Source: Selaginella moellendorffii
Taxonomy: Eukaryota; Plantae; Lycopodiophyta
Direction: 5' to 3'
Length of the DNA stretch: 64,000 nucleotides
Assembly: GCF_000143415.4 (NCBI RefSeq)
Contig: NW_003314321.1
Span: forward strand, 248,001-312,000
Below are positions 1,769-35,251 of this stretch, one piece after another; within the stretch, counting starts at the first letter, position 1, and each line of letters begins with the position of its first letter. The notes under the pieces are model-generated. The model saw only the letters and a program-made list of their open reading frames with translations, did no database searches and was not told the origin of the DNA. The position numbers and the translations under genes were made by a program.

Positions 1769-2347
1769 TATAGCATATGTGATCATGGAATGAAATTTAA
1801 ATATACTATCACCGTGAATCCTTGGAACCTTGGGGGATAAATGAGGATAAAATACCCACTAAAGGCTCTCTCACAAACAAGTATCCTTTTTTCCAGTTGA
1901 CTTAAAAGCTCTATTTCATTAAAGTGGGAATTGTCATTATCCCACTTGTAAAATAAGGTTTCCAAACTTTTATATAGTATATAAATATAACAAAATTTAA
2001 CTGCATTGAGGCACATGCCATTTTATTTTAAACAAGGAAATGTCTACTCAATCACTTCTCCTCCCCCTGCCACTGCTTCACCTCTCTCTTCTCCTTGTCA
2101 TTGTCGTCCAATTTCTTTCCATCCTTTTAATATTGGCTCAGTTGCTCCGAGTCTAGGTGGAGCCCAAGTCCCCATTCAATCTTTACTTTCCCCTTATTAA
2201 TAAAACAACTTCGTAGACTTCCAATAACATGCTGTAACACTTCTAGTATAATGCAAATCCTCTCAAAGAATTGTCTTTTAATATTAATACAATGGCATGG
2301 AACCCCATGCCATAATAAGTTACATTTTTAAATAAATACATCCCATC

Positions 2348-3210
2348 TCAGACTATTATTTTTTGCCTCCAACGCCTATACAATAATCTTGGAATTTCAT
2401 CACTCTCCACACTATCAGGATTTAAACCCAATAGTAATGCCATCTCTTCTCTAATACGTCCACGCTCATGTTCAGTGGTTGAAGAACCCATCCGGTTGAG
2501 CAGATTATGGAGATGCGGATAGTGCTTGGCTAGACAATATACATGCCATAAATGATGACTGGTGTTTGTCCGATCAAATGGCTTCTGATATACCGTTCCA
2601 TCTGCCATTTGGTTGATTTCTGTAGCCACCTCCTGGACTGGCCGGTTCTCTATCACCATTGCTCCAAGCCGTTTTGCAAGGTCCCCCAGAACATACGGTT
2701 TCTTCTCCCTAGTTTCCATATTGCAAGAGATGGGGTGCATTGCATATGTGTGCGTGTTCGCTGCAATTTTAATCGGCGAGTCATCGATGATGAGGATTTC
2801 ACTTGACCTAGCAGTCCGGTTCATCACTACAGCCTCTGGCTTGACGAAGATGGGCTTGCTACCCCTCACATGGACCATAGTCAAACAATCCTCCTGCGTT
2901 AGGAGAAAGTCAAATGGTAATATTACTTACGTCTGATCGTGCATCATCTGTAGCAACGTTAATGCATTGTGGCACATCATGGATGTCCAAACTCCCAATT
3001 GCAAATTGAACACGGCCCTCTGTTTTAAGTGTCGCATGGTCATTATTAGATCCCGCAGTTTCTCCCGTGTGATTAATGTGAATCTGTCTCTTTTGACCAA
3101 CTTGCGACCGCAGGCTTTGGAGGGTGCAGTGACATTCGAGGACGAGCCACGCTCATGGGAGAAAAGGATACCGTTCAGATCAAAAACGATACAGTACCTT
3201 CGCTGTGACT
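2348..3210 (-). CDS. FCP1/NIF-like HAD phosphatase domain exon (one internal TAA)
   Basis: Motifs IVFDLNGIL, LGVWTS, FLLTQEDC, FVK and LIIDDSPIK..N occur in NIF order. ORFs 2927..3232 and 2348..2884 share a frame. Confidence 0.75.
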
Positions 3211-6200
3211 CTGAAATGAAATGCGTCAGCATAAAAAATGGTACAAGTCAATTTTACCATCTACAATATTAGCGAATGGTGCTCCCGATGGTCGTTCAGA
3301 GGGTTTTGGTCGAGGAAACGTGAAGGGCGGAAATACTCTCCTCTGCAATGTGGGGTCAATCGCATCCGATGGCGTGTGGGCACATGCCATTTCAGCTGTA
3401 GACTCTGGTACAACTGGCTCAACAGTGGCATGGGGTGGTTCCAATGGCGTGTGATCACACGCCATTTCAGTTGGTGCCTCCATTGGCAAAGTGGACATGA
3501 CCGAACAGGCAGCAGGGGCGGTGTAGGGAGGTTCCAACGGCGCGTAGTCAGACAATTGGGCACACGTTGAGTCCGTTGGAAATGAGGATACGACCGGCTC
3601 GGTGGCTGGGGCGGCCTCATGCGGGTCCAATGGCGCCTGGTCACCGTCAGTTGGATACGTGGACAAGATTGACTCAGTGGTATGGGCAGCATCAAGTGGA
3701 GCGTGGTCAGCTTGCTTGGCGTTGATATGGATAGTAGCCTCCACCAGCTCTGATGACTCTTGCAGGAAAGTAGAGTCCATTGGCGGATCCATATGCATGT
3801 CCAAATATCTCCCTTCGATTGAGATGGTATCCTCCCGTGCTACTAAAAACAAACTCATTAGCACATTGAATCGACTATACTGTATTTACCATCAACTGCT
3901 ATTGAGGAACTAGGACCGATATCACTTGGGCGCACTGCTGATTCTGAAGGATTGGACATACGTTTCGACCCTTGCTTGGCACTATCCTTCCTCGACACTA
4001 AAGGCTAGAGTTTGTAAATTCAACTGAATAATCTCTACTTACCATTTGCTCTGCGACCTACATAGACAATGTTAGAAATGGTAAAAGGTTAGGAATGGAT
4101 GTACTATTATTTACCTGATGGTTTGTCTTGTATAACCTTCCTCCGCTACTCTTTGGCCACCTCAGGCTGGCCATCGTCGTCATCATCATCGTCGTTGTTA
4201 TTGTGATCGTCACCATTGTGAGGACCATCCAAGTCCTCTTCGTCCTCCTCTTCTTTGTCCTCCTCTTCGTCCTTCTGCTCTTCCTGCTCATTATCTTTCT
4301 CTAGCTCCTCATCCCCCTCCTGCATTTCTTCCATAGGCTGCTCAGGCTGGATGGCTTGTTCTTCCAGGACCATCTTGGGAAAATCATCTGGCCGAGTCTC
4401 CATCTCAAAATACAACACATCCATAGCCTGTTTTAGTGTGTGACCTAGGACCGTATCCTCACCCGACTGTCTTAACATGGTTTCTGCACGTTCTTGCACC
4501 CTTCGAAGACGACGAGATGAGAAAAACGTGGCCCTGACTTGAAAAGCATCCCTCATCCATTGTACCTCTCCATTGAGATTGGGGAAGGGGAGTCCGCCAT
4601 AGGAATCTGAGTCAGAAGGTGGTGACTGGCTGCTTTCACTCAGCCCTTGATCTACAATGAATGGCATGAGCACACACGCCATAACCGCGAGGCATTACCT
4701 ATCATCTTTTCGTTGCCCTTCTTCCTTTTCGAATCAAACGCCTCTGATCCCGACGACTGTCCAACGTGCTTTCGCTTTTTATGACCACTGTCAGTTTGAG
4801 CTTGGCTGGTGCTTGCCTGTTTTGCCTTTCAAGAAGTGTCTCCTGCAAGGAATGGCATGAGACCACACGCCATTGCAAATATAATTTGTACCTCCTTTTT
4901 TCCTATTGCTTGTCTGTTTGTCCTTCTTCGACGCGCCACTAGTGCGCTTTTCAGTCCTCGTGTCTGAATATTCACAACAATCTATAATTAAAATGGCGTG
5001 AGGCCTCACGTGACCTTACCTTGTGCAAGTTGTGAGCTCGGCCCAACATGGGTATTTTCAACAGTAGCTGTTAACGCCGTTTCAGCATCTGGGGGTGGCC
5101 ACGCTCCTGCATACAGAGCTTGTGAGATAACATTTAAACTTAAAGTGTGTACTCACCAGGTTCACAGAGAAGATACTGTTTTTCTTTGGCAACTGTAATT
5201 ATATGCTCCATTGAAGTCACCTCTTCAATGAAGTTTGTCACCGCAACACACGGGACACCCTTGAGTAGTGCGGCTCGAAAGAATAGTCCGCCGCAGTTGT
5301 ACTCGACAACGCATTTGCCCTTGGAGTCGGAAGCAGGTGACCCACCCGCTATTGTGTTGAAGACCCAGTTGAGCATTTCCCATGCTGCACCTGGAGCTTT
5401 CTTTGGATTCGAAAGCTCCATAGCCGTCTTCAGTTCCTCAGGCACGGGTAAATTGACCTCCCTCAGATCAATTCGATCGGCCTTGTCGAACGAAGCTAGG
5501 AAGTCACTCCAGTCCCACTCTGCTGCAGGACCAATAACAAGGGCGAGTGTGATGATGCGGACATTCGTCGGTATCTTCTTCTTAGCCATTATCCCATGGA
5601 TCTCCCGCATCTCCTTGCCTTTCAACCGAGCCTTCATCTCGTTCAAGGCCTTCCAGAATTTGTGATAGGATTCGGAGTTGTAGATCATATAGTGGACTGA
5701 AGATTCCACCTCCGCAAGTCCCACCATTAAGTCAATGATGGAGCTGACTTCGTCTGCATGAGTGATCTCCTCGTTTGTGAAGTCCACCACACAAAAGATG
5801 TTCTTGACCTGCTCATCTCCGCGGGAAACGATGCTCCTCCACCTTTGATCCTCATCCAAATTCACGTATACCCAGTAAGGTTCTCGATAGGCCTTTGCTG
5901 CGGGGTCGAGCTGTTTCTGAAGCCGGCGGTCGACATCCCTCTTAATGAAATTTGGATACTGATCCAACTTCTCAGCTTTACTTTTCGTGGCATCCCGCAG
6001 CAGATCGATGAACTTGGGGGCCCCCTTCACGTACTCGTCGATGTCTTCATTTGACAACTCCAGCGCTTCCATCATCTCTTGCGTGGTGTCGATGCTCACC
6101 CTCTCCACGGCCACTTGCTCGAAGATCCAATCCTTCAATAGCGCACGAGCTCTCAAAGTCGTGCACAAGTCCTCGTATGTCACAATATGGCCGGGAGTCA

Positions 6201-6659
6201 TTTTGGTCTTGTTGAAGACTACCTCACCACGTAGAAGAGCATTAGCCACTATCAGAAGGTCGTCGTCGTCTAGAGACCACGAGAAACGCAAGGCGTTGAG
6301 CTTCAAATCATTGGGCTTCCGGCCGTCCTCCACACCCATTGAGTTTAGCAACTCCCCGTCATGGTACCTCCTCAGCACATCTACCCATTTGTCAAAAACA
6401 ACTTTTGTCGCGAGTAGAATGTTATGGATGCTGAGTGTGTCATTGACCCCCAGTGTTTTCGAGAGAAGACTCGAGAATTCCTGCAATGGAAATGGCGTGA
6501 GGCCACATGCTATGCCACATGCAACGAGGCTTACCTGCCAGGCGCTAGTTGCTAGTGCACGTCCTTGTCCTGGTTTTTGTGGCTTCTTCAGTTGAACCCA
6601 GAGCTTCCGTGTTCGTGCCAATGTCTCGTGCAGACCCGATTTGTAGCACGTTTCTTGCT

Positions 6660-7050
6660 TGACATTCTGTGCGTGGGAGATGTATATGATAGATCGGAGG
6701 GGCGAGTTGCCTTTTATCAGGCGGACAACTCTTGTCTTGAAAACTTTCTTCACCTCCTCGCCCACCATAATATCCACAACTATCTCTTGCATCGCCAAGC
6801 TAGAATGCTGCCCGGAGACGGCATAGAACCGGATGTTCTGATCGTCCAACACCTTCCTATTGATCAAGTCTGGAAACCTCGTCTCGCCCTTCATTGTTCG
6901 GTAGTAGGGGATCACGTCTGCGATGTCGAGTGTTACTGGACTTGCCAGCATCTTCTGCTTCAGTTTCTCCACCCACTCATCAGATACTAGCCTGTGGTTG
7001 TATTTGCTTTGGATGTCGATACGGCTCACGTCGATTGTATATACTTTGTT
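6660..7050 (-). other. ParB/Sulfiredoxin-like N-terminal domain within the cargo protein
   Basis: IDVSRI..NHRLVSDEWVEKLKQKM...FYAVSGQHSSLAM...VVRLI..ISHAQN matches the ParB/Srx pattern, with GQHS in place of GxxR. Confidence 0.6.
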
Positions 7051-8430
7051 GGAATAGTAACAAGTACTATTATCTGCGATGATTTTTGCTGCCTCTTCTT
7101 GCTCTTTCTGCTCTTTGCGGCTCTTCTTTTTGGTGGGTGTAGTGTTCGAACCCGAGGCAATGGCATCACCGAGTAGCTTCTTTTTTGGAGCAGGAGAGTC
7201 GGATGTCGACTTGAGCTTGACCACCCTTTTCTGCTTCGGGGTAGTTTCCAGATCGACCCCCTTCCCCTTCGCTTTGCGAACTGGAGGCACTCTCAACGGC
7301 TCAATGTTGGAATATAGTTTTTGAACATCGCCGTAGGTGAGGTCCGTGGATTCCATGTGATCTTCATAGACCCGCAGCGTCTTTGAAATTGTGGGCCTCC
7401 TGGACAACCTCTCCCTAGCTCCCTCTAGGAATTCCTCATAGCCGCTGCCCCCCTCTGGGAAGCCACTAGGATGTGCAAGGTGGATCTTGAAGGCAGACGC
7501 TGTCTCTACCACAAGTGCCAGTCCATATTCTTGCATGGAACTGCATGGAGTGTCTGTCACTTGGATGAGGATCCCCATGCATTCTTTTCTCCCACCATCT
7601 GTGTTGTACAGCCTTAGATCCTCGCCTTCCATCCCAAAAGTCCAACTGGTGAGCTCCTCCCCCTTCTCTGCATCCACATTGACAATGGCTGGAAGAAGAA
7701 CGCAATTCCTCGCCTGTTCAGAAATGCACAACAATTAGAGCTAACAGATGAAAAGCTAGCAGCTGGAAATAACGTTAGGCCACACGCCATTCACCACTGC
7801 ATCAGATGTCTTGAGGCTGCATCCTAAGATGGCGTGAGGCTACACGCCATCTGTAACCGGACTGCACTCGAGAGCCCAATCAGTGCATGCCAATGTTGCT
7901 ACTGAATGGCATGTGGCCTCATGCCATTTTCTACTTGGCTTAAAAGACTTACCATTTGAAGCCGAATGGAGGCGTGACAATCGAGGCCGGACTCGCTGGC
8001 GAATGTGCACTGTGTGTGCAGCGGATTGTAGCAGCAAGGCTACTCTGCCACTTACAGTTGGAGAGTGGCGCTGAAATCTCCCGGGACGCCAAGTGGGCTG
8101 CGTGTGGGTGGCGGAGTGGGCGGCGGAGTTGGCGGCGAAGTTACAAATTGGGTGTGTCTTGAAGTGGACGCCGATGCACACGAGCGCGATGCGAGCGCGA
8201 GTGTGATGCAAGCACGAGTGGACGCCGATGCACACGAGAAACCTGTAGAGAAGGTAGATGAGCGCGAATGTGAGCGTGATCGCGAGTGGGAGCGCGATGC
8301 GAGCGCGAGTACGAAGCAAAATGCAAAACCTAACCTCACACACGCGAAATGTCACGACGGTTGGTAATCCCGCCACGTCATCATTCCTCGGACTTGGGCG
8401 CCACCATTAATTTCTGGATCGCCGCGCGCA

Positions 8431-8558
8431 TGCATGCACGTGAAATCCAAAAGAAATCCGCAACGTCATCATTCCTCGGACTGCATGCACGTGAAATCCA
8501 AAAGAAATCCGCAACGTCATCATTCCTCGGACTGCATGCACGCGAAATCCAAAAGAAA
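8431..8558. repeat. 51-bp tandem repeat, about 2.5 copies
   Basis: Unit TGCATGCACGTGAAATCCAAAAGAAATCCGCAACGTCATCATTCCTCGGAC. Confidence 0.9.
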
Positions 8559-9231
8559 GATCATGATTGGGATATCATTTAATACCCTCGCTATATTTAT
8601 ACCATGCATGATTGGATATTCCAAAGCATCTTGTATTTCCAAAAATGCCAGATGTTCAGCTAAATAAAGAATGGTATACAAAAAATCCCAAAAAATGCAC
8701 CAAAAATGCTCGGCGTCATCTGGCGTTATCTCTTGAATGGCGTGGGGCCGCATGCCATTTTCAGGGGCACATAGGAGTATATTCCTAGAATATTCTGACA
8801 CACGCGAGATTTTTTTGAGTTTTCTAGAGATCCAACCGTTAGATCGCAACTAGATTTTACAGAATGGTATACAATGTCTTTCTTGATGACCCTGCAAAGA
8901 AGCATCTCGATCGGACACCACATGAGACCACACGAGCCTTACAATGTTTCAGGGGCATTTGCCATAGATCCGACCGTTATTTTGCTCCAAGATTTTACAG
9001 TTTGGTGTGCATTGACCTTTCCATCGACACTGCAAAGGGACATCACAATCAGATGTGGGATCACAAGAAACTAACTTCACTAACTCTGGTTTCACCAAGA
9101 TCTACGTAAGGAGTTATGAAATGAAAGGACCCTCTCTATTGAAATGTGTTTATGGTCCTAGGGGCATTGTGACATATCAAAGGATTTTGCATCAAGTTTT
9201 GTATTTGCATGTTTATCAAGCTATTGAATTG

Positions 9232-9257
9232 CTAAACCCTAAACCCTAAACCCTAAA
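9232..9257. repeat. Interstitial plant telomeric repeat / telo-box array (CCCTAAA)x3
   Basis: ctaaaccctaaaccctaaaccctaaa between the two divergent TE genes. Confidence 0.85.
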
Positions 9258-10552
9258 CATGTGGCAAATGCTGCGTGAAGAAAGATGCCCTTTCTGGGCA
9301 AATGCTGTAAGAGGCAGATGCCGAGCAAATGTATCTCAGGCTAGCGAAGGGGACAAACGAAAGCTAGCTATAAACATGACGGGATGCAAATAGATTACTA
9401 GGCTGGTCCTGCGAAAATCAAAAACCATAATTGAAAACATTGAAAATGCAAAAAGAAAGGTTTATAATATTTTTGAATTTTAAGCAACCAAAGGAATGTA
9501 AATAGGGCATGTGTTTGTAAGTTTAAAAATGCCTCAACCACTTAAATTCCCAAGTAAATAAAGCTATTTCTATTTTTGGTACAGATAAACTTTATAGCGT
9601 GTGGGCTCATGCAATTTTGAACCCAAAAATGCACCAAAAAATGCTCGACTAGCATTATTCTTTGAATGGCGTGTGGCCTTATATTGCCATAAATGGACGT
9701 ACACACACAGCATAATTATTCCTTTACACGGCGAATAATCTTGGTGCGGATCGCTGATATGGCATGGCAAAGTTCAAATCACTGACATGGCACAGCTGGA
9801 TCGAGGCAAGGACATGATGTGACAAAGTTCAACCTCCGACAACAAAGTCTAGAAGCTACTCAGTTTGAAATTTGTCAGAGGAATCATAAGATCTGGTTTG
9901 TCAGAGGATTTGATGTGACGTTCAAGCGTGTGTTATTTTTGAATTCTCGAACTCATTCCTAGGTCTATCATTTTTGTGTGCCGTGTTCTTGGTTCCGCTG
10001 AGCGCAGTGAGCGTTGCTTGTGTAAGCGGCGTTGTGAGCTGTGGTTTATGCGTCTACGAGTGGTTGCGGCATTGCGAGCGCCATTGCGAGCGGCAGTTTA
10101 TGCGAGTGGCAGTTTGTGCGAGCGGAGCTACGAGCAGTTGCGGTGTTGCGAGCGGCGCTACAAGTAGTTGCGGTGTTGCGAGTGGCACTGTCTTTGGTGT
10201 GGCTACCGCTTCCTCTTAATATTCGGCACTTGTGCTTCCTGGTATGTTCACCATGGAATGGCTTAGGACCACATTTAGAAATGGCATGAGGACACATGCC
10301 ATCTTGGGCCCTTGCAATTTCATGGCTAGCGTATTGTCATGTATGTTTTTACTTGCCTGCAGCTGTGTGTATATCAAGATGGCATGAGGCCTCATGCCAA
10401 TTTTGTGAATGCGAAATTTCACGTGGGTGTCAATAGCATGTTTGAATAATGGCATGTGGCCTCATGCTATTGAGGTTGTTTGGTATGTTATGATTTAGGC
10501 CATTCTCCAATCATTTTTTGCATGGTCTTAACTTCTTTTCTGCACTTTCAGA

Positions 10553-13500
10553 ATGGCCTTCAGGGTTGGGGAAAAGGTTTACATTTTGAATGGTGGGAAG
10601 AGAGTTGCAAAAAGGACCCTTGTGTCTATGGATCGGAACTTTGTTATACACTGTCAAAGGCTTGGGGAAGGCAATGCTGCTGTATCAGTAGAGACTGTCT
10701 TCGATGGGAATGTGGTCGCTATTGAACGAGGAGAGATGGTCGTCGGGGTAAATGTTGTTGTTGCCTTGAAAAATCTTCAGAAGAAAGCAGATGTTGGGGA
10801 CAGCGCAAGTGCGACGCATGTTCCCTCCGTGGATCTTAAGAACCGTGCTACATGGATTCAGGCAAAGGTGTTTCTAAACAACCCCGAGGGGGAGGTGGTA
10901 GCTGAGGGCTTAGCCACAGTTGTCGATCCAAGAGATGCGGTTGCTAATCAAGAATTGGGCTGGGATGATATTGGAGTTGCGATTTTAGAGGTTGTTGACA
11001 CAGAAGAAAACAGTTTGACTATTGGAAGCATTGTGCGGTGGAAATTGAGGCACTTAGTGTTTGAGAATGTGAAGGATTCACAATCAAACACCACTACAAC
11101 TGATGACAGAACATCTCTTCATGGGAAAAGAAAGTACACCTTCCTAAAGCGCAGCCAAAGGGATCTGAGCAACGAACCGAAAAGGCAGAAAATGGCGATG
11201 GAGGTTCGAATGGTCTTGACAGTTGCTTGTTGCAAGAGGAGGTGCTGTCAACATGCTGATTGGGATGCTATTGAAGAGGAGAGAGCAAGATACAAGACAT
11301 TGTCCTGGAAGGCAGCTCGCAATTTTGTGTATGAGGCATTACGGTCATCTGTTGATGCTTCAGAACATCAGGTGGGGCGCATGGTCTTCCAGAGGGGTTT
11401 GGTCTGCATGAAGGCATGGAGAATCATTTATGGAGTCCCTCGAACCACATTCTACAGAATCAAAACTGAGTTCGAGGAACAAAGGGTTCAACAGGTAGTC
11501 CATAGGAACGACGGTACGCACAAAACCAGGGGTCATGTTGTATATGGAGAGGCAATCTTCAAGAGGTTTGTCGAGACATGTAGCGAGCAGCAACCACATA
11601 AAACCCGCCTCTTGGAAGATGGAACACGAGACACCCAACGAGTTCTCCCTTCCATGTATACCAAGGGGGCCATATTGGAAGATGTGAATCGGGAACTCCA
11701 GAGTAATGGCTACAGGAAGCTAAGCCAATCTAAATTTAGTAGATTGTGGAGCAACAGGTTCAGGGATGTGAGTATAGGAAAGTACTCCAGCTTTTCAAAG
11801 TGTGACGAGTGCACTGCTATCAAAATGGCTTTGTCGAAGAATTCTTGCAGCGCTCAAAAGTGAGAGACGTTGGTTAGAAGGCGGCTCGACCACAACATCG
11901 AGCAGAGAAGCTGCAGGACTGCATATTATCATAACAGGATTCTCTCCATGGAGAGACCTAACTCTTACTTCTGCATCATCCACGACAAAATGGACCAGAA
12001 AAAGACGTGCTTACCTCGACTCAATCCTGCCCCCAAGGCAATCTCTTCATCCATGCAGCTGCCTGTGTCTCTGTTTGGCATAATCGCTCATGGGCATGGT
12101 GCCCAGAACTATGGGAACTTCTTTGTACCTCTATGGGGTGGCGGGGGTGCAAACATGATGATTGCGTCCCTAGCAAAACACTTAAGGTCTCTGCAAAGTG
12201 CGCAGACTGAGCTGAACGGCCAACCCTTGCATAAGGCCCTTGTCGATCGAACCCCATACAGGGTTCAGCTGGAGGAGGAGCAAAGGCTTGCAGTATCGCG
12301 TGGGGCCCCATGCCATCCCAGTGAATATGTTGGCCGTCAGATTGTAGGGTTATCACGTGAGGCCTCATGCCATTCCGACGAGGCTGGTCGCCCGGTGAAT
12401 GCACAGCCTCATCCAAACGAAGCAGAATCTCAAGGAAGTTCTTGCGGCTGATGTGGCCTTCCACCCCATCTTCTGCTCCAAACAGACAATGCTGGCAGTG
12501 AAAACAAAAACATGTACGTCTTCGCGTACTTGGCGATGCTTGTTGCCAAAGGCATATTTGAAACGGTTACACTTGGCTTTCTCATGGTTGGGCACACTCA
12601 TGAAGACGTCGATGCCATGTTCAGTCACCTGGCAGAGTCCCTCTAGTGATCCAATGTCCTCACCCTCCCACAACTCTACGATGAATTCCAAAATTGCATC
12701 AAAGGTACTGTTGAAGCTGGACTTGTGACAGAGGTTCCAGACTTTAAGGGGTTTGTAAGAGGCTACATCAGGGACGGATCCGAAACGCTGATTGGCCACT
12801 CCAAGCCTCTTCAGTTTCATTTCAGCATGCGTGACGGTGCTCCAGTGATGAGGTACAAGATGAGAGAATGGGACACAGTGTGGCTGCCAGTGGACGGCAT
12901 TGAACTCTTCAAAAGAGATCCCATAACTGGGGAACCTATGATTCCTCAGGGTTCCCCACGGCCGATGCACCCGGATGGACTCAAAGACCAGGAAAGTATA
13001 GTGGCCGGGATTAGACAGCATATTGCCTTCTGGAAGAGGGGGTTGGTGTTTGGTGGAGAATCCTATTTTCAGAGGTGCAAGCCTTTGCTCGAATACTGGG
13101 AGAAGATTATATCTGCTATCCAAAATGGGCCGGTTGTATATGAAGAATTGGAAGAGTCCTTTTGGCTAGAACCCAGAGCACCAGATAGTAGCGGAACAAT
13201 GTCCTCTGGAAATGCAGTGACAGATAACGATGTTGAGGATCACTATTGTGGGCCGAGGAACAAGAAGCCGGATTCAGCATTCAATCCAGTACAGGTCTGC
13301 AAAGGAATGGTCATGCTTGTCAGACCTAGTAATAAAAAACAAATGATATGGGTGGGGCACTGCATCACTGATGCAGAGGAGGACGCAGAAACTAACTCCT
13401 TCAATGTAACTGTGGAGTGGTTCAAGCCAAGTTCCGGATATACGAAGGATTGCCTAGAAAAGAGATGGGTGCTGAATCCAAGGGATCCCAGCATGAGCAT

Positions 13501-13693
13501 ATCGGTGGATAATGTTGTGCATGGTTGGATGTGGAAGCAGAGTGCCACCATCACCTTGCCAGACCATGCAAGAGATGCAGCAAGAGCATTCATAACCCGG
13601 GTTCAAGGTGAGATTCATTAATATTCCTTTACTAAGTTTCTAATGTATTTTATTTCAAGGTGAACAATCCGAATCTGAATCAGAGGAGGCGTG
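10553..13693 (+). pseudogene. Sola-like DDD transposase of about 1,020 codons with 4 in-frame stops
   Basis: ORFs 10553, 11870 and 12725 share one frame. Motifs: CCKRRCC, VCMKAWRIIYG, KCDEC, IIHDKMDQ, LLQTDNAGSENKN, FLMVGHTHEDVDAMFS. Stops at 11861, 12449, 12644 and 12647. A probable short last exon (EQSESESEEA*) ends at about 13693. Confidence 0.85.
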
Positions 13694-15581
13694 ATGGCAT
13701 GTGGCCTTACGCCATTCCTAGGTGAGATGATACAAATAACAAGTATAAATTCTTAGTTGTTCTAGCAAATCTTACTTAAAGTTCAAGGTGAACAAGCCGA
13801 ATATGAATTCATCAGATTGTTATAACAAATTGCGAGGTGATGGCATGAGGCGATACGCCATTTGAGAGTGGTAGCCATTCCTATATGAGGTGAGTGAAAT
13901 ATTTATTAGAAATACCTCATTCAATTATGCACTTCTAAGTCTTGGTCCACTCAGTACTGTTTGCATGTTTCTATTTTAATTCTTTCTCTAAAATGTTATT
14001 TAGCATGTGGCTTCATGCCATTGCTCTCCACAATCATGCATTGAATTTTTCTATCCTTGCATAATACTTCTCCATATATATAGCATGTGTGCACATGTGA
14101 TATGGTTCATTAGGCCTGATATAGTGTGTGAGGTAAAACAAAGATGATGTGACATATGCATTTACCAATCACACGTGCATAAATCTAATAATATGGCGTG
14201 TGGCCCATATTAATGGCACATAAACCCATATTGTGGGCTTACGTGCTTTATGACCATCATTCCCTTGCAGCGTGTGTGTTGGTTTCCTTTTATAACACAA
14301 CGAACTCCATATTTTTGGGTGAAGAGCGTTCTCATGGCAAGCACAAAATCTGTAAGTGAGGCAGAAAAGGAGACGGAGAAGGAGATAGGTGAAGATGTAG
14401 AATATATAAGTCTTCCAAACTCCCCGTACTATACTCCAGGTGATCATTTTTTTGAACAAACGGCAACATTAACAACTATTGAGAACGCCCCAATAACGTC
14501 AGAGACAACAATCCAAAGCAAAACAACTGACCCGGAGAAGGATGATAGTACCGCTGAGAGTACCAAAAAGGAGGTGTCCACTAGCGCTTAGGCTTATAAT
14601 GGCGTGTGCCCTCATGCCATTTACTTGATCACCAAATACTTTTTTTCCTTTGCACTAGTATATCTTAATACCGGTTTGAGAAATAGAATGGCATATGCCC
14701 TCAGGCCTTTTACTAAATCACCTTTGAAAGAAATGCAAGCCTCTATGTCGTAAAAAAAAGGTACTAGAGAAATTCCTTAATAATATGAATGTTATTTAGT
14801 TTCATGAAAATACACTAAGGGTCAAATGAGTTAAATGACTTCTCCAGACTAGCAATGCCTCTTGCTACACCTTCACAATTAGATTCGTTAGAAAAAGATA
14901 ACATTGAATAATATCTAAATGTTCTCACCATTAAGTTATATGTCTGGCTAATAGGAATGACGTTCATCTTGGAAAGCTCACCACACGCTCAATGAACAAA
15001 CAAATAGTGTGTGCGCGCATGCCATCGCTCTTCTTTAGCTTCAGATTCGGCTTGTTCACCTTGACAATGAGATTTATTATACAACCAGATGGACTCAGTC
15101 TGGACACAAAGTCACCGCGCTAGTCACCATGCCCCAGATATGTCTAGCCTCTGGACAAAAAACATATAATTTCACGTCATTTTCAAATACTTGAAAATTT
15201 GTACCTAGTCCCATTTTACTGAATAAATCCCACTTTAACGAAATAGAGCTTTTAAAGAGAGAGAAATAGAGTGTGCTACATGTGGTATCAAAACAAATGA
15301 CATGGGTTCAATTCCCATTGATTAATGGCTACTTAAAAATATAATATACCCTTGAGTAAAGTATATTCTTATCCCTCAATTTGAAATCATACGTATTGGG
15401 CATCCATGCGTATATCCTTCTACTTGATGGAGCATCTACGAACAAAGATATCCATCATGGGACTACTGTATGGGTGCATGACTAGTTGTCTCATATGGAA
15501 TAACTAGTCTACATAATAGAAAGATTGATATATTTAGTGTGGAAATGGAAGTGTTAGTTCCCTTTGGCTTAGTAAGGGTTG

Positions 15582-18210
15582 TGTGAGACACAAAATCCCT
15601 AGGCCCCAAAGTGGAGCCAAAAGGGTGCCACGTGGTAGTGGCCAAAGTGAAAGCCAAACAACAGTAACACGTTTACACTAAAAGTTCCGACTTGAAAGGT
15701 TGACACGTGGTAGTGGCCGAAGTGAAAGCCAAACAAGCGTAACACGTTTAGACTAAAAGTTCCGACTTGGAGGGTGGAGAGCGAAAGTGAAACTCCCAAC
15801 AATGTGCTTGAGGAATGAGCACGAAGTGAGCAATAAGCGAGGCTCTAAAAAAGGGACCCAAAAGGACCAACACATGACACGTGGAAGTGTCCAAGATGGA
15901 GTCCGAGGTGGACCGAGACGGAGTTCGAGATGGAGTCCGAGATGGAGTTTGAGATGGACCCTAGATGGAATCTGAGATGGAGTCCGAGAAGGACCCAAAA
16001 TGATTTGCTAAGCAAGATTGGCAAGTTAGGGGAACAAATCCCCTAGTCGAAGGTGCTAACTTCAAAAGGGGTGGCCCATGGGGCCGAGCATGGAGGAGTC
16101 CATGCACGATCACAGATTTGTCAAGTAAAAGGACTTGGCAGTGTGGAGGAATTAGGTTCCTAAGCTATGATCTATAGTGCGCTTTAAGTACATATTAGTG
16201 CACCGGCGTGGGGAGTCACACCAGGCATCCTGTGCGATGCCATCCGTAGATGCATATACGGAAGTTGGGTTCGAGTCCCGACCCTCTAGTACTTGGGTTC
16301 GAGTCCCGACCCTCTAGTACTTGGGTTCGAGTCCCAAATCACTAGGGCATGGTGATGGTTTGGAATATGAGGACACTCATTTTTCGGTGGTTATGGACTC
16401 TTAGTGAGGAGACTGGTTTGGGCACACCGCCAAGCGAGGGATGCCTCGAAGTCGTGATGCACGGTTAGATAGTTTAGTGTGGCTCAGCATATCTAACTTG
16501 AACACTTTGGTGCGAGTAGCACCAAAGACGTGGTGAATGAGATGGGGACACCTAATCTCAGTTGCTATTAACCCTTAGCTGTAAGGGCTGGCTTGGGTGC
16601 ACCGCCAAGTGTAGGGGATGCCCCTAGGGTTATAGTCAACAACTTGAAGGTCTAGAAGACCAAGTACTTTTTGACAACTCTGTTAATATGCTAAAGTGAG
16701 ATCATTAGGTGATCTTATGGCTAAAACAAGGACAAAGTCATTGTGAGGTTAAGGGATAAAGTTCCTAGTTCAAAGTGTTGATTTAAACTATTGATGATGG
16801 TGTGGCTTGTTCAAGGTGACCAAGTGCAAAGAACACCTGAGGGAAATGATCTGTGACAGTGCGATGGCATAGTGAGTCCGAAGAAAGTAGTCTTTATAAA
16901 AGACCCATGGTAGGGTCACAAAGTTGGGCCAAGGATAAAGCCCACAACAGAAAATGCTAAAAAGACGTACTAGGGGTGGACACCTTTTGGATTTGGCAAA
17001 GTAGAGTCTTTGCTATGGAACCAAAAAGATACTTTGAGAATAGAGGTAGCGATTCGATGTTGCTAGGTGCAACAATCAAGGATAGGAGCAAAAGACTAGT
17101 GGCTAAGAAAAGAGCCATGGGAATAATGGGAAAAAATTCGAAAAACAAATTTAAGCCAAGAACACTAATGTGTTAGGTACTAACAAATTGTGGGAAATGC
17201 AATGTGTTTCCAAGGATGGATTTCCAATTGCTCCGATTGGGCAAAAGTGGAGGCTCTAAGGGAGGGAGCGGTAAAGTAGCCAAATGATAGGGTCATGGAT
17301 AGCTCTAGCACAAATTATGATAACTGGAACTTAGTGCCCAAAGTGGCACGAAATAGAAGAGAGGATGATGGTGCCCTTAAGTAGAGAACTTCCTAGGATG
17401 GGGAAGTGGAGTTGCACAATACATGCAAAGCAAAGTGTCGGAGACACTTAGGAAATTGGCTTTGAAAAGTCAAAAGTAAAAGTTCCAAACTGCAAAGGTT
17501 ATATCGATGGAAACTAAGACTACTCGAGATGGAATAATGGGATTGATAGAAACAGTGTCTCTAACAGGTTTAGCGAGAACTAAATCAATAAAAGGAAAGA
17601 ACCACCATAAATGGTGCAATCAGTCTTTAAGTTGAAGAGACTATCCTCCTTAAAGGATGGGTAAGGCATGGTGAGCCTTTGGTGTCAAACCATTAACGAA
17701 TATTGGTGAGGTGCTAAGAATGGAAAGGGTAATACATGTTGATGTTACTTTATAAAATAGTTCATCATTTGATAAGGACATCAAACTTCATCTATGGGTG
17801 GTGTTGTTGTGAGACATAAAATCCCTAGGCCCCAAAGTGGAGCCAAAAGGGTGCCACGTGGTAGTGGCCTAAGCGAAAGCCAAACAAGCATAACACATTT
17901 GGACTAAAAGTTTCAACTTGAAAGGTTGAGCGCGAGAGTGGAACTTCCAACAATGTGCTCAAGGAATGAGCACGAAGCGAGCAATAAGCAAGGCTCTAAA
18001 AAAAGGACCCAAAAGGACCAACACATGACACATGGAAGTGTCCGAGATGGACCTGAGATGGAGTCCGAGATGGAGTCCGAGGTGGACCGAGACGGAGTCC
18101 GAGATGGAGTCCGAGATGGACCGAGATGGAGTTCGAGATGGAGTTCGAGATGGACCCAAGATGGAATCTAAGATGGAGTCCAAGAAGGACTCGAGATGGA
18201 GTCTGAGGTC
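15582..18210 (+). repeat. About 400-bp direct repeat pair (15582-15998 and 17808-18210) inside family B
   Basis: Both copies start TGTGAGAC..AAATCCCTAGGCCCCAAAGTGGAGCC and end in GAGATGGAGTCC arrays. Confidence 0.85.
16265..16335 (+). repeat. 28-bp tandem repeat (x2.5), each unit with a Pol III B-box-like GGTTCGAGTCC
   Basis: Unit TTGGGTTCGAGTCCCGACCCTCTAGTAC. Confidence 0.85.
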
Positions 18211-18370
18211 AAGACCGAGACCGAGACTAGGACCGAGACCAAGACCGAGACCGGGACTGAGACCAAGACCAGGACTGAGACCGGGACTGAGACCGAGACC
18301 GAGACCGAGACCGAGACTGAGACCGAGACCAAGATTAGGACCGGGACCGAGACCGAGGCCAAGGCCGAGA

Positions 18371-18416
<46 letters not shown>

Positions 18417-18506
18417 ACCCGAGCCCGAGTCCGAGTCCGAGTCCGAGTTCGAGTTCGAGTTCAAGTCCGAGTCCAAGTCTGAGTCCGAGTCCGAGTTCGA
18501 GTCTGA
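18040..18506. repeat. Compound 12-mer/hexamer satellite (GAGATGGAGTCC, GAGACC, GAGCCC, GAGTCC)
   Basis: Directly visible. It explains the low-complexity ORFs in several frames. Confidence 0.95.
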
Positions 18507-19821
18507 GAGGGTGAAAGCCCAAAGTGTTTGTCTCCCAGACCCTGGGGGATTTAGTGAGCTCCAAAAGTATAATAAGGGGGAGGACTACAGTGGAGCCAAT
18601 TTGGCCAGGAAAGGCCAGTTTGGCCCAAGAATGCTATACCCAGTGTTGGGTGATGAGCTGCCCACTGGGAAGTCCAAGACTAAAGTGAACACGGACTGAC
18701 AAGTGGGGTAGCTTGGTGAAGTGTTCAAGAGCCGGCTCTAGTTCCCCCAGGAGATCGACTAGCCGATGCTCCCAGTCCAAGTGTGGGTGGCATTACCTAC
18801 TTGAATACCTGGTGTGGCTTAATGGAACTTCACTCTAAGCCCATGGCTAGAGCACCCAAAGGCAGAAGGTGGGGAGAGTACCCATGAGGCTTGCGTAAGG
18901 CCACGGTGTTCCGAAATGTTGTCCTAAAGGCCCAAACTGTGCAAAGGAAGAGGAGTAGTCCTCTGGTGTAGTGACCAAGGATACAGTCGGGTGGTGCAGA
19001 AGTCCCAGAGAACCGTGGGACTTAGTGCTCGGGCCTATGGGCCTCGATGTAGTGGCAATGTTGGCGAACATGGACAAAAAGGGACTTGGTGGGGACTGGA
19101 AAAGGGATATTGGGGATGGCTAATCCCTATGTCTATGGGCATCCTAGGGATGCTAAGGAGTGGATCTGGGATAATCACTCGTGAATGGATGGCCCAGTCT
19201 TTGAGAGACGGGACTGTGATGTAGGTGGTGTTAAACCACTAGTGTGACCAAGGTGAAGGGGCATGGCCTTAGCATAACAGGCTGATATGTCGATGATACG
19301 TTGGGGTGTCGGTCATGGGATCGAACACGTGAAGCATTTGGACCAAGTGCAAAGGTTGAGTGGCAGGGATGCCATTCTTGGGGCTAGTAAGCCTAAGTCC
19401 GAAATAGAACTTATGGAGGTTGTGAGTGAGACTCTTCCAAGTGGTCGGAGGTGTGGTTAAGTGACTAAAGTAGAATGGAAAATTTAGTCACTTACAGGTT
19501 ATTAGTGAATAGTCAATGAGGACATTAACATCTCTGAAAGGGGACGGGGTTAGTATAACGCATTTGATCATGGAATGAAATTTGGATATAGTGTCATTAT
19601 AGATCCTTAGAACTTTGGGGGATAAATGGGGATAAAATAGCCATTAAAAACTCTTTCATCAAGCAATCGCTTATTTTATAATTGGTTTAAGGGAAGAGAG
19701 ATATAGTGTCATTATGGGTCCTTAGAACTTTGGGGGGATAAAAAAGCCATTAAAAACTCTCTCATCAAGCAATTACCCATTTTCCAATTGGCTTAAGGGA
19801 AGAGAGATATAGTGCACTACA

Positions 19822-30146: not shown

Positions 30147-33100
30147 TCAGGGTTCTCTTGTAGATGGGCTGGGATCTGGAGGAACGTCAGGAGGAGGCAT
30201 CAGCGAGTCTGTAGACAGTATTAACTGCTCCTGATCCCTTTGTATGAAGTATTTTAACTGCTGCACATGCACAATCTCCGGAGGATCGGCCTGCTGAACG
30301 TCATGCCGAACCTCATAAACTTGTGGTCCAACTTGCCGCAACACCCGATACGATCCTTTCCACTGCACAAGGAGCCCCTTAAATAAACCACGTACCGTAA
30401 GATGGGGAAAACGTCCCACTTGTACCAACAGAACTCTGCACCCCTGTGACATAGGCATACCAAAGAGACGGCAAATAACCATCCCAATCCGAATGCTAAA
30501 AGTTCACATACTTCGAAATCATCCCTTTGAATGTCCGAACGAGCTGTTCCACCAGACCGTCTGATTGTGGAAGATAAGCACTCGTAAAAGTGTGGCGTAT
30601 CCCCAACCGAGATGTCAAAACATGAAATACCTCAGCCATAAATGCAGGACCATTATCCGAAAGAATCCGCTCTAGACAAAAATGCTGGAACACCACTCGA
30701 TTGAGGAGGAAGTATCCAACAGCAATTGCAGAGGCATTAGCAAGAGCACCAACTTCCACCCAATGAGTCAAGTAGTCAGAAGCAATAATAACATACTCAT
30801 TGCCAACAGTCGATCGTGGAAAAGGTCCTATAAGATCAAACGCCACCAACTCAAATGGACGGGAAACTGCAATTGACTCCAACCGTCCTTCCGCAGCACA
30901 AGGGGGAGTATTACGAGCTTGGCACCAAACGCAGCTACGCACATACCGGATAATATCACGTCGCATCTCCGGCCAATAGAAAGACCTGCGCAGCTTCTCG
31001 GTGACACGACGGTGTCCTATATGCCCACCTAGAACAGGAGAATCATGGTAGGCATGGAGAAACCGCGGAATAAACACCGAAGGTACCACCAGTTGTAAAT
31101 GATCATCAGGATCCGTCCCCATAAAATAAAGAAGGCCATCTTCAAGGCGATATTGAGAATGTAAATGCCGGAAAGGCAAGTCATCAGCAAGTGATGCAGG
31201 ATTCTCAAACCCATCTCGAAGCCTTCGAATCCACGGCTCAATCTTTTGAGCTTCGCAAACCTCCTCAAGAGAAGGCAGATCTTGCTCTGCACCCTGTGGA
31301 CACTGAACGTCAAGGACAGCAACCGCCAACGGCACAGAATCCTCATCTAGAAAATCCACAGATGCTGAAATAATAGGTTCGTCAGAATGATGAGAAATGA
31401 GTGGAGAAGGAAGAGGAGTTCGAGAAAGGGCATCAGCATCAGCCATAGAACTCCCTGGGCGATGAACAACATCGAAATCATATATCTGAAGCTTCAAAGC
31501 CCATCGAGCTGTACGACCAACCAAGTTCTTCCGCTTCAATAATGAAGTAACAGCAGCATGGTCACCTTCAAGTAACGTTCGAGAACCATGTAGATATGCA
31601 TGAAGTTTCTCGAAACCCCAGACTGCTGCTAAACACTCCTTCTCCGTCGTGGAGTAGTTCATCTCCGCTGGTTGTAATGTACGGCTTATGTATGCAATGG
31701 GATGGCGCTGACTAGGCACACTTGAGCTCTCTTGCATCAACACACCTCCAAGACCAATGTCAGAAGCATCCACGCGCAAAATAAAAGGTCAAGTGTAGTC
31801 AGGATATGCCAAAACCGGAGGAGTTATCAATAGCTCTTTGAGATCCACGAACGCCCGCTCACAATCCGGAGACCAGATGAAAGATGACGTTGATGACTTC
31901 AGCAACGCTCGCAATGGTGTAGTGCGATCGGAAAGATGATCCACAAAACGACCAAGATACTGCACCTTACCCAAAAAGCGCTGCACATCATTCACACACT
32001 TCGGAGTAGGGAAATTTAGAACAGCCACAAGTTTGTCAGGATCAACTTGCAAACCCTCACGAGAAATACGGTACCTAAGATAAGTTGTGTCCTTGGACCC
32101 AAACACGCACTTCGACCGCTTCAGCTTTAAACCAACGTCGCGTAGCCGATCCAACACTTTACAAACATCACGAACGTGCTCCTCCCACGTCCCCTCCGAG
32201 TGGATCAAGACATCATCAATGAAGTCAGCAGTCACCTCCGGCATATTGCAAAGAACCTCGTCCATCATCTGCTGGAAAGTTGCTAGAGCATTGTTCAAAC
32301 CAAACGGCATCACCAAGAACTCGTACAAACCAAATGGTGTACGAAAAGCAGTCTTAGGAATATCTTCTTCGGCCATCGGTACTTGCCAATACCCAGAAGC
32401 AAGATCTATCTTGGTGAACCAACGACTTTGCCCCAGACGATCCAAGAGATCAGCAGTGTGAGGAAGAGGATACACATCTGGGATCGTCACTTCGTTTAAC
32501 GGGCGATAGTCAATGCAGAAACAAATACTCCCATCAAACTTCGTCACAAGATGAGGTTCACATGCCCAAGGACTCCGCGACTTCCGAATAACACCCTTTT
32601 CCAGCATTTCCTTGACGTTTGCTCGTAAAATTTTGATCTCCTTAGGTGACCGACGACGAACAGGAACCTTGATTGGACGAGCATCCCCGGTGGGAATTGG
32701 ATGACGTGTGGCAATCTTGGCCCCAGACGATAGGTCAAATTCAAAGAGATCATAATACTCCTTCATGAGCTGGTCAACTGCTGCAACACAAAGATCGTCG
32801 AAGGGATCGGAAAAGGGAAAAGCAGAACAAGATGGAAACACAGAAGGAAAGAGTGGGGAAACAAAAGTAATGGAAGTAGAGGTAGAAGTAGAGGGACGAA
32901 GAGGTATGGAAGTGAGAGGAATGGATAAAACATAAGGAAGTATGAGACAAGGGGGAGAAGCCTCAAAGTCACACTTGGCATGATTGCGCTGCAACCAATC
33001 CATACCAAGAATGAGGTCAAAAGCTTGACTCGGCACCACCCGCAACGACTGCAATTCAAGCTCGAGATCGCCCACATGCACAACCAGGTCCACCTCATCC

Positions 33101-33395
33101 CATGCATATGCATGTGTACGGCCGTTGCCATAAAGAATGAAAACTTGTTCTGCCGCATGACGCAAGTGTAGACGACAACATGTGGCAACAGGTCGAGCAA
33201 TAGAAGATAAACTCGAACCTGTATCAACCAACACAGAGAGAATAATAGGAGACTTCTTGTTATAAAAACGAGCTTGGAAAGTAAACACCGGATGAACTGG
33301 TGCCGAGTGAACCCCTTGATGATACTCCCGAAAGAAAGATGGAGGGGTCACTGATTTATTCGCGCAAAGTCCCTCCGTTACTTGCGCGACTCCTC
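30147..33395 (-). pseudogene. pol: Pol (protease, RT, RNase H, integrase) with nonsense mutations and 3' deletions
   Basis: LVDTGS, FIDDVL, DASDIG, HHCC and the integrase core (DLIGP, SDNG). In-frame TGA at 31789 and TAG at 30496. Confidence 0.93.
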
Positions 33396-34310
33396 ATTTC
33401 CCGAATGCATCTCGGTGTCCAGACCTTCCACTGCAGCAGCACCCAGGGGACGTTGCTGACGCCAAGGTCTCCACCCAGGAAATGGAGGTCGCCAATCCGG
33501 AAAACGACGGCAACGCCGATAAGTATGACCAACTTCATCACATGCCCAGCAGCGAACATCACGGCCACGACCACGTCCTCGCGCTTGTCCTTGGACTCGA
33601 GCAGCAGCAGCATCAACCTCCATTGGAACAGGACCATCACCCATAGGAAGTGGAGCGGAAGGACGTGCAACGAGAAGTGGAAGAGGCGACGTCTCATAAC
33701 GTTGTGCCAAGCGAAGAGCATCGTCAAGGGTGGCAGGAGCAAGTGCATGCACAAGTCCGACAAGATCTTGACGAAGTGCTAGCCACAACATTCCTAGCTT
33801 GATCCGCTCCAACATATTTGGCTCCGCACGAAGCAAAAGACTTCGGAAACGAACACCAAATTGCATCACCGACTCCGATGGCCCTTGGCAAAGACGATGC
33901 AATTGTTGGAAAGCATCATCACAATCATCGGCATGTCCGAAGGCACGTTTGAAGACGTCTGGGAGAACACTCCAATCCTCACGAGTAGCTGCGCTCAAAC
34001 CATTGTACCACTGCAACGCCGTCCCTTGGAGACACGTGGAAAACTCACGCAACCGTCGAGCATCATCCCAAGAATGATATGTGGCAATCACCGTAAAGTG
34101 ATCGAACCAATGGTACACATCATCCCCAGGATTCCCGCGAAAAAACTCCGGCCGAACGCGAGGATTGGCACCAAGAGCAGGAGGAGTTGTACCACGTGCC
34201 GTGAACGCCGCCATCAACTGAGTTTGGTTGTTCAATTGCAAACGCATAGCATCAAGCAATTGAACCAACTGCTGCTCTAGAGTCAAAGGAGGAGATTGCG
34301 GATCGGCCAT
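33378..34310 (-). CDS. gag: Gag with CCHC zinc knuckle
   Basis: CWACDEVGHTYRRC, QGPSESV, GPVPMEVD. Confidence 0.93.
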   Translation of the reverse strand: MADPQSPPLTLEQQLVQLLDAMRLQLNNQTQLMAAFTARGTTPPALGANPRVRPEFFRGNPGDDVYHWFDHFTVIATYHSWDDARRLREFSTCLQGTALQWYNGLSAATREDWSVLPDVFKRAFGHADDCDDAFQQLHRLCQGPSESVMQFGVRFRSLLLRAEPNMLERIKLGMLWLALRQDLVGLVHALAPATLDDALRLAQRYETSPLPLLVARPSAPLPMGDGPVPMEVDAAAARVQGQARGRGRGRDVRCWACDEVGHTYRRCRRFPDWRPPFPGWRPWRQQRPLGAAAVEGLDTEMHSGNEESRK

Positions 34311-35251
34311 GAAGATGAACGAAAAAGAAAGAGCAAAAGAAGAGAAATGACAAAAAAGCTGGAAAGAAATGGTAGATCATGGTAGATCTAGACAATGCAA
34401 AAAGCTAGATCGAAACCAAAATACTGAAAGGAAAGAACAAAAGAAAGGAAATGGAAAAAGCTAGATCTAGACGATGCAAAAGCTAAATCTAAACCGAAAT
34501 CCCAAATCCAAGCACTCCCCAGGGACAATCAAAAGTGCCCCTCAACTCCACCAATGTGAGTGCATGGAATATGGAAAGGGAATACAGAAATGTGCATATC
34601 AATTAGCCCAAAAACCCTAGCTTATATACGGGAGCAAGTGGTCCGGATTGAAACCAATCCGACGGCTACCAAAATCCACTACGCTAATATTAGTATACGG
34701 CATCGTAGCTGTACACTTGGCCTTCACAGTTTTTAATTTATAAACACATGATTAATCTTATTGCATAAGAATAAAAATGAATAATACTAGAAAAGGTTTA
34801 AGAAAGTTTACAAATTATAAACATGTTTATAAATTATAATACAAGATTAATCTAAATGAATAACAAGGGTTAGATAGTAGAAAATCCTAGAATATCCAAG
34901 CAATTCTAAATATATCCATCCTAGTCCCCTTACAGGTTTGCTTAAATAAACAAAAAATTAGATTTCAATATCTAATGAATATATTATTAAAAATACAGCT
35001 TTCAAGTTCATGCAAAATGTTGTTAAAATTATAGCAAGTATATTAGTATAATTTAGAGCATTATGTTGTCTTCTATCCAATTTTAATAATTTTTTAAAAT
35101 AATTAGTCCACCTAGTTTTATTAAATAGAAATAAAAAAGTTTTGTTTGAGATGAATCTTTATAAAATCCTAAAAACGTTTTGTTTTATTTTTATGAAAAA
35201 TAAAATGACAAATAAATGTCTTATTTAATCAGTAAGTTCTAATTATATAAT

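Follow-up and report, generated by a model that had tools for sequence, protein, structure and literature searches.

What is the long accessory gene carried by a DNA transposon of Selaginella moellendorffii, and what might its product do for the element? The question arises from a stretch of 64,000 nucleotides of this lycophyte (contig NW_003314321.1 of RefSeq assembly GCF_000143415.4, positions 248,001 to 312,000; hereafter the window, in whose coordinates all positions are given), in which a Sola-like transposon holds, besides a transposase gene, a cargo gene on the minus strand and 25 copies of a 22-bp palindrome. An earlier note, made from the sequence alone, had proposed one spliced cargo gene of about 1,600 codons that fuses ParB-like, methylase-like and FCP1-like phosphatase domains. 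The evidence described below argues for a single gene of this kind, and suggests, more tentatively, that its product would act on the element that carries it.

Structure of the cargo gene

In the gene model, 11 minus-strand exons lie between an ATG at 7955 and the stop at 2348, with 4,917 coding bases and 1,638 codons. All ten introns are of the GT-AG type; nine of them are 45-57 nt long, and the eight that lie between 5156 and 3211 are all in phase 1. The coding part of exon 1 would consist of the likely start ATG alone (7953-7955), which is followed by a strong donor (score 5.7) and is in frame with exon 2; both this start codon and the first intron (7952-7714, 239 nt, holding three palindromes) are predicted. 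Exon 2 (6535-7713) encodes an N-terminal beta-rich region, a Lys-rich linker and the putative ParB N-terminal domain (about 7062-6634). It is separated by intron 2 (6481-6534, 54 nt, phase 0, stop-free and holding a palindrome) from exon 3 (5157-6480), which encodes a helical domain (about 6480-6145) that aligns with the DNA-binding domain of ParB and then a methylase-like domain lacking a DPPY-type motif (about 5892-5179). There follow exon 4 (5020-5106, 87 nt), the Lys-rich exon 5 (4892-4963, 72 nt), the Lys/Arg-rich exon 6 (4699-4842, 144 nt), exon 7 with a short helical region and an Asp/Glu tract (4115-4651, 537 nt), a 15-nt micro-exon 8 (4043-4057), exon 9 (3890-3997, 108 nt) and exon 10 (3258-3842, 585 nt), which is built of Pro/Thr-rich repeats of 75-93 nt, two of them with a palindrome. 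Exon 11 (2348-3210) encodes the NIF/FCP1-like HAD phosphatase domain (about 3196-2750) and a C-terminal tail. Three internal in-frame stops interrupt the model in this copy: TGA at 4831-4829 in exon 6, TAG at 4148-4146 in exon 7 and TAA at 2929-2927 in exon 11.

Splice sites were scored without regard to reading frame. Every GT in 2300-8000 was paired with the best AG 40-79 nt downstream, using approximate splice weights, which gave 286 candidates. The nine short introns of the model, with their exact ends, took ranks 1-4 and 6-10, intron 2 being second. Intron 2 could also be translated without a stop, but its 18 residues are missing from the homologues XP_024528744.1 (S. moellendorffii) and CAM6105388.1 (Calypogeia fissa), and read-through was therefore rejected; a W-K-V or similar word ends five of the seven ParB-side homologues at this position. 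An alternative 38-nt form of intron 4 (acceptor 4982), which leaves the phase unchanged, was set aside with a score below that of the 56-nt form. Such short introns fit the host, since introns of about 53-91 nt occur in a GH9 gene of the window, where five were measured, two of them by eye with a margin of about a base. These features argue strongly for splicing of the exons into one frame, and the cargo is very probably one gene with the structure modelled.

At the level of sequence, namely the one-frame model and the splice ranks, the proposal that separate open reading frames (ORFs) join through short phase-1 GT-AG introns has thus held; as a spliced transcript it has not, there being no spliced read or contig (see below). 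The range of 2348-7734 given for the gene is probably too short, as the likely start lies outside it, behind the 239-nt intron. The ORF at 4791-5009 does not correspond to a single exon, since only exon 4963-4892 lies within it in that frame and exon 4842-4699 is read in a different one. The ORF at 5140-7734 reads through the phase-0 intron at 6534-6481. Exons 5106-5020, 4057-4043 and 3997-3890 had been missed.

Domains and relatives of the predicted protein

An AlphaFold model of exons 2-3 was made from 22 alignment rows. Its mean predicted local distance difference test score (pLDDT) was 53.6, and it was fair at residues 218-360 and 430-600 and poor elsewhere. Residues 218-360 matched the ParB, Noc, PadC, KorB and sulfiredoxin folds (Z 10-11; best Foldseek E 1.3e-3), as illustrated by 7bm8_A with Z 10.6 and a root-mean-square deviation of 2.5 over 98 residues (pLDDT of the ParB region mostly 60-89). 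Several ParB alignments continued over the helical domain to residue 523, the position of the ParB DNA-binding domain, with high deviations owing to the orientation of the domains. On this model the cargo protein has an N-terminal fold of the ParB/Srx superfamily. The surroundings of the ParB box are kept, with an upstream Arg in 12 of 12 aligned rows, G-Q-H, and a downstream Asn in 13 of 13. TIM-barrel-like matches of the C-terminal part of the model (Z 5-7.5, low pLDDT) were rejected as artefacts.

The methylase fold was recognised through a homologue, P0021, whose AlphaFold model has a mean pLDDT of 48.6. This model matched beta-class N6-adenine/N4-cytosine (N6A/N4C) methylases in 12 Foldseek rows with E <0.001 (best 5e-5). 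Among 48,161 chains its top 11 matches, at Z 10.0-13.1, were all methylases, and the next dropped to 7.8. Motif IV precedes motif I in the fold, as in the beta class. When P0021 and the window protein were compared pairwise, only the motif-I stretch was common to both (E 6e-5); a profile of the homologues alone found the window ORF with E 3e-8 among 396 ORFs, the window row having been present when the alignment was made. Beta-class N6A/N4C methyltransferases are marked by a catalytic (D/N/S)PP(Y/F/W) motif. The Asp of this motif IV is kept in the cargo protein, and the Pro-Pro-aromatic part is missing both in the window (DFTN) and in all three homologue groups (DLRR, DSAN and DATT); the domain is therefore likely to be catalytically dead. 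Motif I reads EYNCGG, in which a motif-I-like glycine loop is kept. Pfam gave no PF01555 match in the cargo.

The last exon, translated with X at its stop, scored 24.1-25.7 bits against Pfam PF03031 (NIF), for which the cut-off is 21.8. The Asp of motif I, the Thr/Ser of motif II, the Lys of motif III and the DD of motif IV are present in the translated domain. Lys-rich, Asp/Glu-rich and Pro/Thr-repeat stretches lie between the methylase and NIF parts. All three domains named in the earlier note were thus recovered, ParB from the model, the methylase fold by way of P0021 and NIF through Pfam.

A search of 1.84 billion representative proteins returned 14 matches (best E 1.3e-9). Three of these (P0005, P0006 and P0012) were dropped as chance matches driven by repeats, and 11 are colinear relatives with 22-33% identity; the best named ones come from a lycophyte and a liverwort. 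The S. moellendorffii genes LOC9650508 and LOC9646204 (P0001, P0015-P0017) comprise the helical and methylase-like part, with neither the ParB N-domain nor NIF, and are possibly a domesticated or truncated form. Three word-index protein searches gave 0, 0 and 1 match, the one being already known; one of the two empty searches used mostly unaligned N-terminal tails and was a weak test of full-length forms. Sequence searches of the PDB gave no credible match, PHROGs and phage tblastn gave none, and no related locus was found with alignment A7 in metagenomes or viral contigs. A locus found from P0021 (L001) was rejected, as it lies in a bacterial glycosyltransferase-like gene.

Palindromes in the element

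The palindrome has the consensus ATGGCRTGWG-NN-CWCAYGCCAT and occurs 25 times between 2000 and 15025, at 2000, 2292, 3369, 3444, 4661, 4852, 4993, 6492, 7769, 7829, 7906, 8737, 9594, 10281, 10379, 10449, 12295, 12352, 13694, 13840, 14000, 14080, 14599, 14688 and 15004. Twenty sites (39 strand matches, against 0.07 expected) have at most two mismatches. With at most three, all 25 sites lie in the element and none in the other 50 kb of the window; five further sites, with four mismatches, lie outside it. Coding sequence makes up 60% of the element and holds only 4 of the 25 sites (p 9e-6), the other 21 being non-coding. Within the cargo gene seven of nine palindromes are in introns, which form 12% of the gene (p 1e-5), and five of the ten introns bear at least one. 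As the pattern was derived from these same sites, the counts bear on where the palindromes lie and on their restriction to the element, and do not speak to function.

The transposon and its transposase

The element spans 1906-15251 (13,346 bp). It is bounded by terminal inverted repeats of 27 bp (1906-1932, starting AAGCT, and 15225-15251 in the opposite orientation), which are identical at 25 of 27 positions, and by a 4-bp target duplication, TTAA, at 1902-1905 and 15252-15255. A single TTAA (889-892) is found in an empty paralogue of the flanking host repeat (595-1023). This repeat belongs to an AT-rich family that is seen in the window at 595-1023, at 1771-1905 plus 15252-15548, where the transposon is inserted, and at 19554-19821.

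Contigs of other copies (four contig sets from one sample, with loosely defined flanks) likewise start at 1906 and end at 15251, and have different flanks: AACA, AATT and AATA after the right end and ATCT before one left end, two of these four being low-agreement consensuses of two contigs. A strict TTAA target is a trait of Sola3 and piggyBac, and that identity was rejected because the flanks of other copies are not always TTAA. This copy diverges from its family by about 1%. With inverted repeats, a target duplication and same-ended copies at other sites, the element is a cut-and-paste DNA transposon, and its family is young, multi-copy and recently active. The suggestion that the cargo gene lies within a transposon was therefore correct.

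The transposase gene (10553-13621, plus strand) stands head-to-head with the cargo gene and has four in-frame stops in this copy. Read through with X at the stops, it matches Pfam PF25273 (DUF7869) with E 5e-41, a domain that may mark a Sola-type DDD transposase. The target duplication is of 4 bp, as in the Sola superfamily, including Sola1-1_Ec32. We call the element Sola-like, judging from motifs and the 4-bp duplication. No paper containing the term DUF7869 was found in the literature searched, and the available passages of PMC4455052 and PMC5751038 only name Sola subgroups.

At the N terminus of the transposase are two beta-rich repeats, and at its C terminus a beta-rich module, which may resemble Tudor/SH3-like reader domains. 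There is also a likely insertion with two palindromes (12295 and 12352), and there may be further 3' exons beyond a donor at 13608. Joints in contigs of other copies (1947-15208, 8766-9265, 9327-9567 and 13705-14647) suggest internally deleted variants; the first points to a very short derivative with little beyond both ends, at a depth several-fold lower. Six indels distinguish this copy from others, of which one is exonic (15 nt, in frame), one intronic and four outside both reading frames. Three plant telomere-type CCCTAAA units lie at 9233-9257, between the two genes, and a small acidic, Ser/Thr-rich ORF of 85 codons (14335-14591, plus strand) near the right end adjoins the duplicated, inverted segments 13655-13716 and 15003-15064.

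Decay and silence of this copy

This copy cannot make the cargo protein. In other copies (contigs from four runs of the one sample), A>G at 4148 gives CAG, and T>C with A>G at 2928-2929 gives CGA; since sense codons stand at these places, the stops at 4148-4146 and 2929-2927 are private to this copy. The stops are thus not fixed in all copies, the case that the earlier note had linked to separate genes, at two of the three. Some other copies have an in-frame 15-nt insertion in exon 7.

In run X2, 131 of 152 differences have T or A in the window against C or G in other copies. Fifty listed differences fall inside the cargo gene, and 44 are transitions of this type: 22 at CG, 15 at CHG and 7 at CHH (37 of 44 at CG or CHG), where the element as a whole has 980 CG, 944 CHG and 4,236 CHH cytosines. 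These transitions fall mostly at CG and CHG, which means that deamination of methylated cytosine is eroding this copy and that the element is methylated by its host.

To look for expression, 9.2 million records were taken from each of three RNA-seq runs labelled as the same species, about 12% of a run in each case. The reads placed numbered 518, 464 and 569, of which 516, 463 and 562 were only partial matches; these sit at the acidic low-complexity tract and at a 40-nt stretch like ribosomal RNA (rRNA). Reads at 4234-4280 and 8019-8058 were rejected as expression, being partial matches from other transcripts. The segment 8019-8058, upstream of the cargo start, is matched by very abundant RNA reads that diverge beyond it; it presumably resembles the 3' part of large-subunit rRNA, and Rfam gave no match in 7700-10500. 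The element seems to be silent in the RNA runs sampled.

Other sequences in the window

Two related repeats resembling long terminal repeats lie to the right of the element (15582-16350 and 17808-18515), with arrays of a 6-nt unit and 28-nt tandem copies. The coding region of a Ty3/Gypsy retrotransposon (30496-34376, minus strand) comprises gag, protease, reverse transcriptase, RNase H and integrase in three ORFs broken by stops. Host genes in 25246-55684 encode ribosomal S8e, ribosomal P0, PPR, 2OG-Fe(II) oxygenase, GH9 endoglucanase, SpoU methylase and F-box/KIB1-4 proteins.

How the cargo protein may act

In the reading that we favour, the cargo protein would bind the 22-bp palindromes across the element as a ParB-type dimer, the dead methylase fold would hold the DNA, and the acidic tract and phosphatase would thereby be brought to the element. 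The protein would then either protect the element against silencing by the host or stimulate its transcription, opposing CG/CHG silencing. The parts of this reading differ in strength. Binding of the protein to the palindromes is probable, and the helical ParB domain is a reasonable candidate for the contact. A non-catalytic, DNA-holding role for the methylase fold is similarly plausible. The phosphatase domain might act on the C-terminal domain (CTD) of RNA polymerase II or on another nuclear phosphoprotein at the element, which is the most speculative step, and an anti-silencing outcome may follow. Taken whole, as an accessory protein of about 1,640 residues that binds its own element with net anti-silencing or activation, we put the reading a little short of an even chance. 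A bolder form of it seems improbable: that a ParB/parS-type system with sites in 47-56-nt introns loads an active CTD phosphatase and a dead-methylase shield, through which the element would rewrite, on its own copies, the code of CTD phosphorylation and escape silencing, the family being widespread and partly domesticated in land plants.

Several observations weigh against the favoured reading. In all 13 aligned rows, Ser or Thr replaces the arginine of the ParB box GxxR (G-Q-H-S/T); the arginine of GxxRxxA is a feature of the CTPase ParB clamp, and CTP-driven clamping may therefore have been lost. The methylase fold is carried over from P0021, which is about 20% identical to the window protein, and the window's own model is poor over that region (pLDDT mostly <50) and matched no methylase. 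NIF/FCP1 phosphatases are marked by DxDx(T/V), and motif I of the NIF part here is DLNGI, with DxN for DxD; the first Asp is kept and the second is Asn. The transposase could be the palindrome binder instead. The annotated S. moellendorffii protein stops after the methylase part, the protein searches found no homologue covering both the methylase and NIF parts, and a separate NIF protein could begin at an in-frame ATG near 3232. The stop at 4831-4829 may not be private to this copy: it is not among the 40 of 171 differences that were listed, and one contig that ends at 4829 hints at most that the site varies. Finally, the three RNA-seq runs held no spliced read or joint and no real cover of either the cargo or the transposase gene, so that the junctions proposed earlier as a check did not appear, and the only contig set guessed to be RNA is unspliced.

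Of the alternatives, the one that survives best, although we consider it unlikely, is that the protein represses its own element: a KorB- or Noc-like ParB on palindromes around the head-to-head promoters, with an SCP-like phosphatase that damps polymerase II, would limit copy number. Both Noc and the repressor KorB are among the fold matches, 8 of the 25 palindromes (7769-10449) lie between the two genes or in their 5' parts, small CTD phosphatases act as repressors, and no transcript was seen in the three runs. However, the palindromes are dispersed along 13 kb and reach 3' introns, a pattern shared with the VANC system discussed below, the family spread recently (about 1% divergence), and silence is explained by host methylation.

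It is rather improbable that the protein is a transposition helper, coating or looping the 13-kb element through its palindromes and so helping the transposase to pair two short ends, like TnpA of En/Spm. ParB proteins do bridge and spread on DNA, and the element has ends of only 27 bp. Yet the palindromes are not concentrated there (two within 400 bp of the left end and one within 400 bp of the right), the joint 1947-15208 suggests very short derivatives at several-fold lower depth, and the phosphatase is left without a role.

We regard as no more probable than the helper that there are two or more genes, or a passenger, with a ParB-methylase gene ending after exon 3 or 7, the NIF exon a gene of its own and the palindromes serving the transposase or neutral. 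The lack of a spliced read in the runs and of a homologue covering both parts in the searches, the ATG at about 3232 and the stop at 4831-4829, which may not be private, all speak for it. Against this, eight consecutive top-ranked introns stay in phase 1 over 1.9 kb, leaving no spacer able to hold a terminator and a promoter, and two stops are private to this copy. In line with the proposal made for Ectocarpus, the methylase could have kept its activity and place N6-methyladenine or N4-methylcytosine on the element, but this is very unlikely: the P0021 model has the beta-class fold and the motif-IV Asp and glycine loop are kept, yet neither the window nor any of the three homologue groups has the Pro-Pro-aromatic part of motif IV, and motif I is EYNCGG.

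Relation to known systems

An accessory protein that would bind its own element can be set beside several published systems, compared here from the passages of each source that were available. Sola1-1_Ec32 of Ectocarpus (PMC12477816) is 21.5 kb long, with imperfect inverted ends of 282 bp and a protein of 1,104 residues, encoded opposite the transposase, that joins ParB to an N4C/N6A methylase; the methylase is predicted to be active and the protein is proposed to bind and modify its own element. By description, the two share a large element of Sola or Sola-like type, a 4-bp duplication, ends starting AA, an accessory gene opposite the transposase and a ParB plus amino-methylase protein. The present element differs in its land plant host, its 27-bp ends, the lost methylase motif, the NIF domain and the 25 palindromes; those passages of PMC12477816 mention neither a phosphatase nor palindromes.

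In Bostrychia, an EnSpm/Plavaka element (bioRxiv 10.1101/2025.02.11.637652) carries the accessory genes PAG2 and PAG3; in PAG3 a ParB is fused to a 2OG oxygenase, and a separate gene of the cassette encodes a PF01555 methylase fused to SET. Common to this system and the cargo are a transposon-borne ParB-like gene, inverted repeats proposed as its own binding sites, and a methylase carried along with it. The Bostrychia repeats form tandem arrays beside the gene, whereas here they are scattered, seven of them in cargo introns. According to a review (PMC4738411), DIRS1 elements have methylase domains that are inactive, and algae have methylases linked to ParB.

VANC21 of the Arabidopsis element VANDAL21 recognises short motifs located in the introns and other non-coding parts of the element that encodes it, and reduces methylation (PMC5735166). 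Enrichment of the element's own motif in introns and non-coding parts, and tandem peptide repeats in a variable region, are common to both. VANDAL21 is, however, a Mutator-like element with an unrelated protein and a 9-bp non-palindromic motif, and function has been shown for VANC21 where here it is proposed. A Pfam search of the cargo ORFs and the transposase returned no domain of VANC or MULE type. By analogy, the cargo most likely works like VANC but is not a VANC.

With bacterial ParB, Noc and KorB the cargo shares the order of an N-terminal ParB fold followed by a helical domain, and a symmetric candidate site; it differs in its 10-16% identity, the replaced GxxR arginine, the 22-bp site, a long eukaryotic extension and the lack of a ParA partner in the element. 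M.MboIIA, M.RsrI, CcrM, M.PvuII and the bdelloid N4CMT, all of the beta class, share the fold and the placing of motif IV before motif I (on P0021), whereas the catalytic motif of the cargo is degenerate and PF01555 does not match it. The NIF/FCP1/SCP HAD phosphatases (PF03031) share the score above cut-off and the residues of motifs I-IV, but have DxD instead of DxN, and no BRCT domain was seen in the cargo. The ParB-methylase part is thus similar to proteins of bacteria and to an accessory gene already described from a transposon, and not to a captured host chromatin gene; a role in chromatin or transcription, as the earlier note suggested, would be a candidate function. The palindromes, which that note had missed, point to the element itself as the likely target. 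The cargo belongs with the ParB-methylase accessory genes of transposons, from which it differs by its likely dead methylase, its NIF domain and its intronic palindromes. No land-plant case and no phosphatase fusion of such a cargo was found in print, in a search that left most subscription papers outside.

With a clear 22-bp candidate site, a young family in which some copies have sense codons at two or more of the stops, and an effector domain that is new, the idea that ParB cargo proteins are self-targeting anti-silencers can be tested directly in a land plant. Should it prove true, anti-silencing would be known in a second form, unrelated to the first, which might also serve as a tool to target plant chromatin.

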